A DNA stretch of 17,138 nucleotides from Eledone cirrhosa. Taxonomy: Eukaryota. Below, in pieces: positions 8,433 to 12,989 of the stretch (positions are counted from its first letter, which is position 1; each line of letters starts with the position of its first letter). Both the position numbers and the translations under genes were made by a program. The stretch lies in assembly GCA_964016885.1 (NCBI GenBank), contig CAXHJY010001564.1, positions 1-17,138 of the forward strand, written 5' to 3'. Below the pieces are notes generated by a model that saw only the letters and a list, made by a program, of their open reading frames with translations, made no database searches and was not told where the DNA came from.

Positions 8433-8596
8433 TATATATATATATATATATTTTGAGTTTATGTTGGTTGTATACCAACACCTCAGTATGCAGGCTGGAG
8501 CACTCGACGAAGTGCGCAGGTTGGTTTGGTTACTCCGGAGTAGTGTAAAATAAAGTTAAATAAAAGTCAAATGATTAAAATTTAGCTTCGTTTATT

Positions 8597-8651
8597 ACTG
8601 CTATATATATTTCAGTGACAGCCATCTTTGGCTGTGACCTCTTCAGGCAGT
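8597..8651 (-). ncRNA. Type I hammerhead ribozyme (left arm of palindrome 1)
   Basis: Minus strand reads actgc-CTGAAGA-ggtcacagcc aaagat ggctgtcact-GAAA-tatata-TA-gcagt, followed by AATAAA. Confidence 0.85.
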
Positions 8652-9192
8652 TTGAATTAGTATGGTATAGACAAGTACATATGTTATTTAGGTGTATGAT
8701 ATTGTCAATACTCTGATATGCCCAGTTCCTTGTTGGGTTGTTAATTCACTGGGGAACTGGAATCATATGAATTCAAACAAACGAATTTTCGTGTCACGGG
8801 TCCCCTTCTCCTCTCATTGGTCAGTTATTAGAACATTCCTCATTCTAAGTGTTGTTATTGTTGGAGTTAGCTTAAAAATTGATAAAATGGCAGAAGGGAC
8901 AAGGTGTTAATGTTCCTTTAACACCTTGTCCCTTTAACACCTTGTCCCTTCTACCATTTTAACAATTTTTAAGCTAACTCCAACAATAACAACACTTAGA
9001 ATGAGGAATGTTCTAATAACTGACCAATGAGAGGAGAAGGGGACCTGTGACACGAAAATTCGTTTGTTTGAATTCATATGATTCCAGTTCCCCAGTGAAT
9101 TAACAACCCAACAAGGAACTGGGCATTTCAGAGTATTGACAATATCATACACCTAAATAACATATGTACTTGTCTATACCATACTAATTCAA

Positions 9193-9247
9193 ACTGTCTG
9201 AAGAGGTCACAGCCAAAGATGGCTGTCACTGAAATATATATAGCAGT
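9193..9247 (+). ncRNA. Type I hammerhead ribozyme (right arm of palindrome 1)
   Basis: actgt-CTGAAGA (9198-9204)-stem II-GAAA (9231-9234)-tatata-TA-gcagt, with AATAAA at 9248-9253. The stem I difference from the left copy gives a U-G wobble. Confidence 0.85.
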
Positions 9248-9298
9248 AATAAACGAAGCTAAATTTTAATCATTTGACTTTTATTTAACTTTATTTTA

Positions 9299-10067
9299 TA
9301 TATATATATATATATATATATACATATATATATATATATATATATATATATATATATATATATATATATATATATATATATATATATATATATATATATA
9401 TATATATATATATATATACACATATATATATATATATACATATATATATATATATATATATATATACATATATATATATATATACATATATATATATATA
9501 TATGTATGTATATATATATAGATACATATATGTATATATATATATGTATATATATATATATGTGTATATATATATATGTATATATATATATGTATATATA
9601 TATATGTATATATATATATATGTGTATATATATATATGTATATATATATATGTATATATATATATGTGTATATATATATATGTATATATATGTATATATA
9701 TATATGTATATATATATATATATGTATATATATATATGTATATATATATATGTATATATATATATATATGTATATATATATATATATGTATATATATATA
9801 TATATGTATATATATATATGTATATATATATATATATGTATATATATATATGTATATAAATATATATATGTATATATATATATGTGTATATATATGTATA
9901 TATATATGTATATATATGTATATATATATGTATATATATGTATATATATATGTATATATATGTATATATATATATATATGTATATATATATATATGTTTA
10001 TGTATATGTATATGTATATATATATGTATATATATATGTATATATATGTATATATATATGTATATAT
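9299..10067. repeat. (TA)n/(TATG)n microsatellite
   Basis: Direct reading of the sequence. Confidence 0.97.
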
Positions 10068-10168
10068 ATCATCATCATCATCATCATCAACGTTTAACGT
10101 CCGTGTTCCACGCTTGCATGGGTTTGGACGGGGGTAGTCCCACTTGAGGCAAGAGTGATTGTCTTGCT
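10068..10168 (-). mobile_element. Short RTE-type 3' terminal fragment with (ATG)n tail
   Basis: Minus strand ends cccgtccaaacccatgcaagcgtggaacacggacgttaaacg-ttg(atg)n, homologous to the 3' ends at 2799-2855 and 15099-15153. Confidence 0.8.
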
Positions 10169-10662
10169 GTATATATATATGTATATATATGTATGTATAT
10201 ATATATGTATTTATATGTATATATATATATGTATATATATATGTATTTATATGTATATATATGTATATATATATGTATTTATATGCATATATATATATAT
10301 GTATATGTATATATATGTATATATATATGTATTTATATGTATATATATATGTATTTATATGTATATATATATGTATTTATATGTATATATATGTATATAT
10401 ATATGTATTTATATGTATATATATATATATATGTATATGTATATATATGTATATATATATGTATATATATGTATATATTGCCAGGTGGTGCTATTAATTT
10501 AGACATGGCCTGGGCCAATACTGGCCAAAACATTTCAAAGTTATATATATGTACATATATATATATATATACATATATATATATATATATATATATATAT
10601 ATATATATATATATATATATATATATATATATATATGTATGTATATATATATATATATATAT
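10169..10662. repeat. (TA)n microsatellite with TATTTA variants, containing a ~65 bp unique island (10478-10542)
   Basis: Direct reading of the sequence. Confidence 0.9.
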
Positions 10663-10753
10663 ATCATCATCATCGTTTAACGTCCATATTCCACGCTTAC
10701 ATTGGTTTGGACGGGAGTTTTCCCACTTGAGGTAAGAGTGGTTGTTTGCTCGC
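10663..10753 (-). mobile_element. Second copy of the short RTE-type 3' fragment
   Basis: Aligns to 10068-10168 over ~80 bp with about 11 differences and has the same (ATG)n tail. Confidence 0.8.
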
Positions 10754-11430
10754 ATATATATATATATATGTATATATATATATATATATGTATATATATA
10801 TATATATATATGTATATATATATGTATATATATATGTAAATATATATATGTATATATATAGATATATGTATATATATAGATATATGTATATATATAGATA
10901 TATGTATATATATAGATATATGTATATATATATATATGTATATATATATATATATATATATATATGTATATATATAGATATATAGATATATATATATGTA
11001 TATATATATATATATGTATATATATATATGTATATGTATATGTATATATATATATATGTATATGTATATATGTATATATATATAGATATATGTATATGTA
11101 TATATATATATATGTATATGTATATATATATATATATGTATATGTATATATATATATGTATATGTATATGTATATATATATGTATATATGTATATATATA
11201 TAGATATATGTATATGTATATATATATATATGTATATGTATATATGTATATATATATAGATATATGTATATGTATATATGTAATATATATAGATATATGT
11301 ATATATATATATGTATATATATATATGTATATATATATATATGTATATATATATATGTATATAGATATATGTATATATATATATGTATATAGATATATGT
11401 ATATATATATGTATATATATATATGTATAT
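10754..11430. repeat. (TA)n microsatellite with TAGA/TATG variants
   Basis: Direct reading of the sequence. A 16-mer TATATATAGATATATG is repeated near 10850-10920. Confidence 0.95.
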
Positions 11431-11645
11431 ATCATCATCATCATTTTTCATCATCATCATTTTACGTCCGCTTTTCCCTGCTTGCAAGGGTGGGACGGGT
11501 CTTATTCAGCACAGCATCTCTCCACTCGTCACGGTCCCTCGTCATCTTCACCGTGAGCTTCAATGATCTGAGGTCTGTTCTCACCAACTCCGCCCATGTT
11601 TTTCGTGGTCTACCTCTACCACGTCTTCCTTCAACTGGCATTTCC
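11431..11645 (-). mobile_element. 3' fragment of RTE LINE family A
   Basis: Near-identical to 2799-3000 and encodes ...[13 protein letters not shown]...LASREKRT*. Has an (ATG)n tail and is embedded in TA repeat. Confidence 0.92.
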
Positions 11646-12082
11646 TATATATATATATGTATATATATATATATATATATGTATATATATATATATGTAT
11701 ATATATATATATGTATATATATATATGTATATATATATATATGTATATATATATATGTATATATATGTATATCTATATATATGTATATCTATATATATGT
11801 ATATCTATATATATGTATATATATATATATCTATATATATGTATATATATATATATATATATATAGACATATGTATATCTATATATATGTATATATATAT
11901 AGACATATGTATATCTATATATATGTATATATATATATATATATATATATATATATATATATATGTATATATATATATATATACATATGTATATCTATAT
12001 ATATGTATATATATATATATATATATATATATATATATATATATATATATATACATATGTATATCTATATATATGTATATAT
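11646..12082. repeat. (TA)n microsatellite with TATC variants
   Basis: Direct reading of the sequence. Confidence 0.95.
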
Positions 12083-12240
12083 AAAATTTCAGGTTATCAA
12101 TAATGTAGTGATAATATATCGTTACGTTAGAGATGAGCAGCGTACGTGCAGGTTTGTTCAACGAGTATAAATTATATTCCGGAGAAATGTAGAAAGGATG
12201 AATATAAAATGAAAGTGCTTTTGTTAAAAAAGGAATTTAT

Positions 12241-12367
12241 TAGGTATTGACATATGTTTCTGTAACAGACCGAATACCTATGTATCGCTGCTTGCGTAAT
12301 CATATAATGTTAGCAAGCATTCGATAGCAAATGTATAATCAGTTGTCACTTCTTCAGAGATTTTGGA
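12241..12367 (-). ncRNA. Hammerhead-like motif with long stem II (left arm of palindrome 2)
   Basis: Mirror copy of 12812-12938. Confidence 0.6.
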
Positions 12368-12811
12368 TAAACTGGATAAAATCAGAAAAATTGAAGTATT
12401 TATATTAGTAAAAGAGGAAGGAACAGAGGGGATAGTATATGACAGATGGTAAAATAATTTACTGCTAAACAAGTATATAATGGGTTTTTAATGAGAATAC
12501 CATGAGTAAATCTAAATAAGAATTTTGGGAGTGCCAATTTTAATCTCTACTTGACCAACTGGACAGTGGACAGGGCTGGTCATTTGGTGCAGTAAATGAC
12601 CAGCCCTGTCCACTGTCCAGTTGGTCAAGTAGAGATTAAAATTGGCACTCCCAAAATTCTTATTTAGATTTACTCATGGTATTCTCATTAAAAACCCATT
12701 ATATACTTGTTTAGCAGTAAATTATTTTACCATCTGTCATATACTATCCCCTCTGTTCCTTCCTCTTTTACTAATATAAATACTTCAATTTTTCTGATTT
12801 TATCCAGTTTA

Positions 12812-12938
12812 TCCAAAATCTCTGAAGAAGTGACAACTGATTATACATTTGCTATCGAATGCTTGCTAACATTATATGATTACGCAAGCAGCGATACATA
12901 GGTATTCGGTCTGTTACAGAAACATATGTCAATACCTA
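12812..12938 (+). ncRNA. Hammerhead-like motif with long stem II and poor canonical stem I (right arm of palindrome 2)
   Basis: CTGAAGA is at 12822-12828. The 90 nt stem II contains gtgaca/tgttac, tatcg/cgata and tgcttgc/gcaagca. GAAAC-ATAT-GTC (12919-12930) gives a palindromic stem III and a GUC triplet, and AATAAA follows just downstream. Confidence 0.65.
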
Positions 12939-12989
12939 ATAAATTCCTTTTTTAACAAAAGCACTTTCATTTTATATTCATCCTTTCTA

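Follow-up and report, generated by a model that had tools for sequence, protein, structure and literature searches.

Hairpins next to two fixed 3' ends of Hydra-clade Penelope-like elements in Eledone cirrhosa: candidate start signals for paired reverse transcription

Introduction

What fixes the ends of a retroelement insertion in which two truncated copies lie head to head and only one of them carries a tail? The question is raised by a contig of Eledone cirrhosa (CAXHJY010001564.1, assembly GCA_964016885.1) of 17,138 nucleotides (nt), referred to below as the window, meaning that whole stretch. It holds two palindromes, element 1 and element 2, both of which are truncated insertions of Penelope-like elements (PLEs) of the Hydra clade, from two autonomous families, F1 and F2. 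In both, the string TCCGGAG, found in the window solely at 8534-8540 and 12178-12184, precedes N3-TG|TA, and the arm boundary lies 5 nt further along. An earlier note on this DNA took the junction, read on the other strand as TA|CA-N3-CTCCGGA, for a conserved nicking, priming or resolution signal.

PLEs are the closest relatives of telomerase reverse transcriptase (RT). The accessible text of PMC8557442 and PMC11167929 lists as open questions how they select a template and why their insertions take the form of tailed inverted repeats. Comparison of copies of F1, F2 and a third family, F3, and of their relatives suggests that hairpins position two internal starts of reverse transcription, which would prime opposite strands of the (TA)n target; we put the probability of this reading at roughly 0.6. 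The elements themselves and their inverted, tailed architecture are of known kinds, inverted 5'-truncated copies with a one-sided tail being described for PLEs in the accessible parts of PMC8557442 and PMC3846280.

Two palindromes and their parent elements

Copies of each family end at a short or at a long 3' end, and the tail is the interval between the two. The features concerned are listed by window position.

8450..9298, both strands: element 1, a head-to-head pair of 5'-truncated 3' ends of Hydra-clade family F1, with a (TA)n tract on either side
8451..8545, minus strand: F1 tail, from the short end to the long end
8499..8541, minus strand: F1 hairpin 1, ACUCC (8541-8537) with G-UC-GAGU-GCU (8508-8499), including TCCGGAG; pairing deduced from covariation in relatives
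8546..8909, minus strand: F1 left arm, the long-ended copy (self-BLAST)
8597..8651, minus strand: predicted minimal type I hammerhead motif of the F1 left arm, core 8640-8646, mirroring 9193-9247; helices assigned by eye
8910..9298, plus strand: F1 right arm, the short-ended copy (self-BLAST), with a 16-nt tandem duplication close to its 5' end
9193..9247, plus strand: predicted minimal type I hammerhead motif of the F1 right arm, CUGAAGA at 9198, GAAA at 9231 and a palindromic helix III; assigned by eye
12082..12989, both strands: element 2, a head-to-head pair of 5'-truncated 3' ends of Hydra-clade family F2, with a (TA)n tract on either side
12083..12189, minus strand: F2 tail, from the short end to the long end, defined from the 5' copy in locus L061
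12153..12185, minus strand: F2 hairpin 1, UCUCC (12185-12181) with G-UU-GAG-C; the window copy has GAA for GAG at 12157
12190..12594, minus strand: F2 left arm, the long-ended copy, hammerhead core 12351-12357
12594..12989, plus strand: F2 right arm, the short-ended copy, hammerhead CUGAAGA at 12822 and GAAA at 12919
4058..7484, minus strand: 5'-truncated copy of F3, a third Hydra-clade family, short end at (TA)n, hammerhead core 4139-4145

Self-BLAST and the positions of the cores bore out the description of two palindromes with one-sided extensions and outward-pointing hammerheads (8640-8646 on the minus and 9198-9204 on the plus strand; 12351-12357 on the minus and 12822-12828 on the plus strand). 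By self-BLAST the arms are 96% identical over the whole palindrome in element 1 and 99% identical in element 2. The spacers are derived from the elements, one arm extending 8-9 nt past the other, to which element 1 adds its 16-nt duplication. The F1 right arm halts at TA, 5 nt ahead of the expected start of hairpin 1, and in full-length copies the F1 tail runs on into hairpin 2 and the start of the open reading frame (ORF; 5' copy in locus L104). A non-autonomous fold-back element or miniature inverted-repeat transposable element was rejected, since copies differ in their centres and the arms continue into coding parents.

The F2 parent is a 3115-bp unit, often in partial tandem, with an intact 772-aa ORF for RT and GIY-YIG endonuclease (2470-4785 in L061). 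The F1 parent unit is about 4.14 kb, and F1-F3 span units of 3.1-5.1 kb and ORFs of 770-850 aa. Elements 1 and 2 had been called unrelated; no match of more than 10 nt joins them, but the parent ORFs of F1 and F2 are 41% identical (F1 and F3 against F2, 41-42%). Both elements are multicopy and young, with top matches 99-100% identical in the 3.0-Gb genome. Young F2 copies with intact ORFs are about 99% identical and suited to reconstitution.

Hydra-clade PLEs (C-terminal endonuclease-positive; Craig et al. 2021) have RWK and DKT motifs, CxCX5C, no CCHH, a C-terminal GIY-YIG domain, a hammerhead and a (TA)n target, according to the accessible text of PMC8557442. In F1-F3 a single ORF encodes RT and then a C-terminal GIY-YIG domain (YRDD and a C-terminal YYVG in F2; F1 and F3 likewise), with an N-terminal RIRWK, RMRWK or RIRWR and with DKG replaced by DKT as ADKT or SDKT. 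By eye, the CxCX5C linker is present, CCHH is absent, and CxxC and CxH flank the C-terminal E and N. The F3 ORF in the window (6148-7484) covers the thumb, CxCx5C linker and GIY-YIG domain. A named Apostichopus japonicus protein is among the homologues. No significant Pfam family was returned for F1 or F2, and F3 had a weak GIY-YIG match below the cut-off (E 0.02).

All three families have a hammerhead motif in the pseudo-long terminal repeat, with core and helices predicted in F1 and F3 and, in F2, a complete core and a weak helix I. The F2 motif (12822-12930, plus strand) is an unusual variant with a 90-nt helix II (-31 kcal/mol). An Rfam scan of the whole window gave, among the best 150 of 249 matches, only miRNA-type matches below the gathering score, with no hammerhead family among the matches listed; no match below E 5 came from two focused scans. 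Of 60 central F2 and F3 matches, 58 are terminal copies, and all of these enter TA repeats.

F1-F3 share with published Hydra-clade elements the CxxC and CxH residues round the C-terminal E and N, a single ORF, 5' truncation, partial tandems and an inverted truncated copy, but their units are longer (3.1-5.1 kb against mostly under 3 kb), as are their tails (94-109 nt against 30-40). By eye, hammerhead and N-terminus differ from those of Hydra-1_Obim. The Penelope-like identity proposed in the earlier note stands, whereas the link to Naiads does not. Naiads resemble F1-F3 in their (TA)n preference, inverted truncated copies and tail, but have an N-terminal endonuclease and no canonical hammerhead, the opposite of F1-F3 on both counts. 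Searches with three 9-mers gave one match in Naiad and one in Chlamys consensus files (about 6,400 lines), against four in 212 Hydra lines.

Two fixed 3' ends per family

Ends were mapped with arm-only queries that halted 8-9 nt before the short site, using the best (youngest) 40 matches per query. Among 30 F2 matches, 15 share one end base and 11 another, 109 nt further along; two end within 4 nt of these and two read into the ORF. Thus 26 of the 28 terminal copies use two bases only. The 30 F3 matches divided into 19 at the short and 11 at the long site. Tails are 94-109 nt long, and every end is a TA or AT common to element and target. TA loose ends at both F2 sites also appear in contigs of two public runs from one study (L061 position 2314 in one run, 2423 in both). 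Among the sequencing runs listed as containing the sequence, none was of RNA. With a query that included the tail, the inverted arm ended at the junction base in 16 of 18 F1 copies with such an arm, in keeping with the cis-signal that the earlier note had placed at the arm/tail junction.

A bulged hairpin next to each end

The conserved unit is wider than the string first noticed. TA|CA-N3-CTCCGGA occurs in two (F1 and F2) of 15 hammerhead clusters of the same genome, these being the clusters with both end classes, and in none of 46 foreign regions. It lies on the 5' strand of a bulged hairpin of the form R-CUC-Y...R-YH-GAG-Y, which has a variable stem-loop, a 2-nt bulge (UU, UC or UA) and usually ACU after it. 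F1, F2 and F3 each have one such hairpin after the short end and another after the long end, 3-8 nt past the last base shared with the TA target. By script, 9 of the 15 clusters have the hairpin 3-11 nt beyond the short end. F2 adds to these through its other copies; the script missed it because the window copy reads GAA for GAG.

Relatives were gathered with a profile of 34 proteins, which gave 77 metagenome loci; 59 of these, with a match starting near the N-terminus, were scripted, and 46 combined a true N-terminus with no less than 120 nt of upstream sequence. The motif lay upstream of the ORF in 40 of the 46 and in at least two copies in 28, as against 3/46 on the reverse strand, 1.6/46 in shuffles and 8/183 in ORF windows. 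Fifteen metagenome contigs have both terminal repeats, and in 11 of them the 3' copy ends 1-12 nt short of a hairpin. By eye, four of six published Hydra consensus sequences have the motif (twice in Hydra-1_Ajap, also in Hydra-2_Ajap and Hydra-2_Amil, and as a variant in Hydra-1_Crog), and one consensus stops before the tail.

Covariation points to a paired structure. With pairing-blind anchors, the inner pair of 74 hairpins, relatedness ignored, was C-G in 47, U-A in 18, U-G in 4, C-A in none and otherwise in 5. The next two positions were paired in 44/64 and 32/38 cases, compared with 25.7 and 15.5 in shuffles. On a protein tree of Hydra-like proteins only, the hairpin-1 pair changed eight times, on both sides together, and was concordant in 29 of 29 rows. 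Two related loci have U-A in place of G-C as the outer pair, and A-U takes its place in F1 and in three further clusters of its genome.

Some stem variants, which the strict pattern did not always match, look compensatory (UUC/GAA, outer U-A and CCC/GGG, in the L313 and L173 cluster, L267, L290 and Hydra-1_Crog). One locus (L018, 74-1170) has tandem hammerhead repeats of about 310 nt, retrozyme-like and without a canonical hairpin; according to PMC7761336, metazoan retrozymes have no conserved motif that points to their partner.

Three other candidates for the signal were set aside. Reading CUCCGG as a UNCG tetraloop suits F1 and F2 alone and not the relatives, and was given up for that reason. 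GCAGGTT is present in both extensions as the earlier note had it (8516-8522 and 12148-12154, with a third copy at 6228), but at chance level: it (or AACCTGC) lies 23 nt from one junction and 35 nt from the other, occurs in 1/46 relatives, and in 40% of shuffles the tails have one 7-mer or more in common. In F3, a TCCGG-like string (5150) is inside the 3' untranslated region and not at an end.

Conservation of the hairpins might reflect some other job (ribonucleoprotein packaging, an internal promoter or translation of the neighbouring ORF), with the nearby ends fixed by UA microhomology to the (TA)n primer. Both hairpins are found in the last 200 nt or so before the ORF start, every end is a TA or AT shared with the target, and hairpin spacing varies from 1 to 12 nt, all of which would suit such an arrangement. 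Yet the AT-rich 3' regions offer many other TA dinucleotides that the F2 ends pass over, and the offset is repeated at the two ends, across three families and among those 11 foreign contigs, which makes this explanation quite unlikely.

Pairing of short and long arms

Some 80-odd arm-only F1 and F2 matches, followed upstream, gave 62 insertions that were tallied by hand. Forty were short+long pairs, one was long+long, none was short+short and one was ambiguous; a pattern script counted 36, 2 and 0 of the three kinds. In the one clear long+long pair (L066, G000:C4:809937-812733) the arms meet 730 nt upstream, in a CCA repeat, which points to recombination after insertion or to an effect of the assembly.

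The arms differ in extent. Of the 40 pairs, 17 have a short arm that extends over 30 nt further 5' than the long arm, and 13 show the reverse; in seven pairs the long arm is a 14-78-nt stub of the tail with no overlap with the short arm. Central joints mostly have a 1-10-nt overlap or a few added bases. The remaining 10 pairs, including both window elements, have ends within 30 nt of each other, as would be expected if the second arm arose by snap-back on the first strand and if a nicking or resolution signal in DNA, of the kind proposed in the earlier note, marked where it was cut or linked to the TA target. Self-priming has indeed been put forward for inverted junctions (PMC3846280, accessible text), and the Drosophila Penelope endonuclease required tail sequence on plasmid DNA, as cited in the accessible part of PMC11167929. 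However, the short arm often holds sequence missing from the long arm, which argues against fold-back synthesis, and the non-overlapping arms largely refute simple snap-back. Six of the eight near-equal F1 pairs end 300-323 nt upstream at a stable stem-loop (-15 kcal/mol), and a truncation hot spot there accounts for most of them. Hairpin 2 lies beyond the far end of the tail, outside the inserted DNA; being absent from long-ended copies, it cannot serve as a nicking or resolution site in the new copy and must act on the template. With the exact letters missing from all 46 relatives as well, a signal acting in DNA is very improbable. Of the three roles first offered, priming, on an RNA template, fits best.

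The pairing bears equally on where the template ends. The hairpins might direct formation of RNA 3' ends a few bases upstream (by cleavage by the element protein or a host nuclease, an exonuclease block, or termination), with ordinary target-primed reverse transcription starting there and each inverted insertion using two RNAs, one of each length. Identical fixed ends are predicted, and for Poseidon PAc of Anolis carolinensis the ends of RNA-seq reads fall on the RT start sites (PMC11167929, accessible text). But a 3' end upstream of the hairpin would strip the hairpin from the template, and random use of two RNA species predicts that half of the pairs would be short+long, whereas 40 of 41 are. 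PAc also starts internally on uncut RNA in vitro (same source, accessible text). This origin of the ends is unlikely, though less so than the two explanations above.

Several solo F1 copies (among L291, L292, L293, L295 and L297) have TA at the 3' side only, and two of these begin with a 15-nt inverted remnant, as if a partner arm had later been deleted.

A possible mechanism of integration

It is likely that the hairpin, occurring twice per element, binds the element protein and sets the RT start on the RNA. The RT-GIY-YIG protein, possibly a dimer by analogy with the PAc prediction, would bind hairpins 1 and 2 in the transcript, and its endonuclease would nick both strands of the (TA)n tract. 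Each 3'-OH could then anneal to the UA just 5' of one hairpin and prime cDNA internally, so that one cDNA would start before hairpin 1 (the short arm) and the other before hairpin 2 (the arm plus tail). The two cDNAs would truncate independently, and joining of their 3' ends through microhomologies of 1-10 nt would yield the head-to-head palindrome, tailed on one side only. For a full-length copy with a long end, the template would have to be tandem or circular, with hairpin 2 downstream.

More tentatively, the two hairpins may dock the halves of a dimeric RT-endonuclease, a single ribonucleoprotein priming two cDNAs on opposite (TA)n strands; telomerase-like reiteration of the dinucleotide might then lengthen host microsatellites.

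Runs of (CT)n, from 3 to about 35 units, lie between the F1 long end and the TA tract (for example, in L004, L012, L022, L072, L299 and L300). Runs of at least three units were present at 15 of 47 F1 long ends and at 0 of 141 of the five other kinds of end (de-duplication approximate), and they occur only at the end whose template reads UCU. They are consistent with slippage, possibly reiterative copying, as synthesis initiates on UCU; an origin in compound microsatellite targets is less likely.

A number of results weigh against hairpin-positioned starts. The motif pattern was shaped after viewing these same sequences; the arm-only query design means that ends further upstream were under-sampled. 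No motif was present in six of the 46 relatives, no hairpin near the end in 5 of the 15 clusters (one being an internal pseudo-core of F3), and no canonical copy, by eye, in the Hydra-1_Obim consensus. In the other four of the 15 metagenome contigs, one 3' copy stops at 22 nt and three elsewhere. The outer pair of F2 hairpin 1 is a U.C mismatch. Folding energies are modest, F1 hairpin 1 not being the local minimum-energy fold and F2 hairpin 2 not folding, so the structure rests on covariation, for which phylogenetically independent support is limited (5/5 pairs agree, p=0.06). A partner arm is missing from 20 of the 62 insertions, and arm extents correlate weakly (rho 0.35, p=0.03). Internal priming and RNA 3' ends at the same sites would leave the same sequence.

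Compact, covarying and set at a constant distance from either end, the RNA element lends itself to a precise mutational test, and reading it as a start signal predicts a two-start integration mechanism. The hairpin is also a diagnostic motif for element boundaries and for non-coding passengers. If it alone directs insertion, it would offer a small handle for programming RNA-templated insertion at TA repeats.

Comparison with known two-start systems

In twin priming of L1, two primings on opposite target strands followed by microhomology joining give an inversion. In L1 the position of the second priming varies, and each cDNA represents its own part of one RNA, whereas in the present elements both sites would be fixed by structure, with overlapping cDNAs.

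PAc (Frangieh et al. 2024) offers a precedent. Its tail is the interval between two internal RT start sites, and its protein nicks and extends both strands, requiring RNA downstream of the starts (PMC11167929, accessible text). The likeness extends to an AT-rich target, two internal RT starts, the need for downstream RNA, extension on both strands and a predicted dimer. PAc belongs to another clade, however, and its starts fall within one AC-rich stem-loop inside the ORF, giving a 30-40-nt tail. The accessible text defines no conserved repeated signal, and a rule of one short and one long end was not found there. A CUC/GAG-type motif was not seen in the letters of PAc figure S1. The twin hairpin is not described in the accessible text of PMC8557442, and the literature searched, which lay mostly outside subscription papers, was in part accessible and included PMC4209133, PMC7761336, PMC7229834, PMC5737381, PMC10085705 and bioRxiv 10.64898/2026.07.22.740005, yielded no description of the hairpin or of the short+long rule.

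Other features of the window

A further 3' end with a CUGAAGA core (8237-8433, plus strand) enters the TA tract just left of element 1. A short-ended, hammerhead-bearing 3' end of another family lies at about 16800-16912 (minus strand), and other copies of that family have a hairpin 3 nt past the short end.

Long interspersed nuclear element fragments, probably RTE-like, occupy 2800-3890, 10070-10170, 10665-10750, 11433-11647 and 13490-15130; the part at 13630-14860 codes for a portion of RT. Their 3' ends are (CAT)n or (GAT)n runs adjoining TA tracts.

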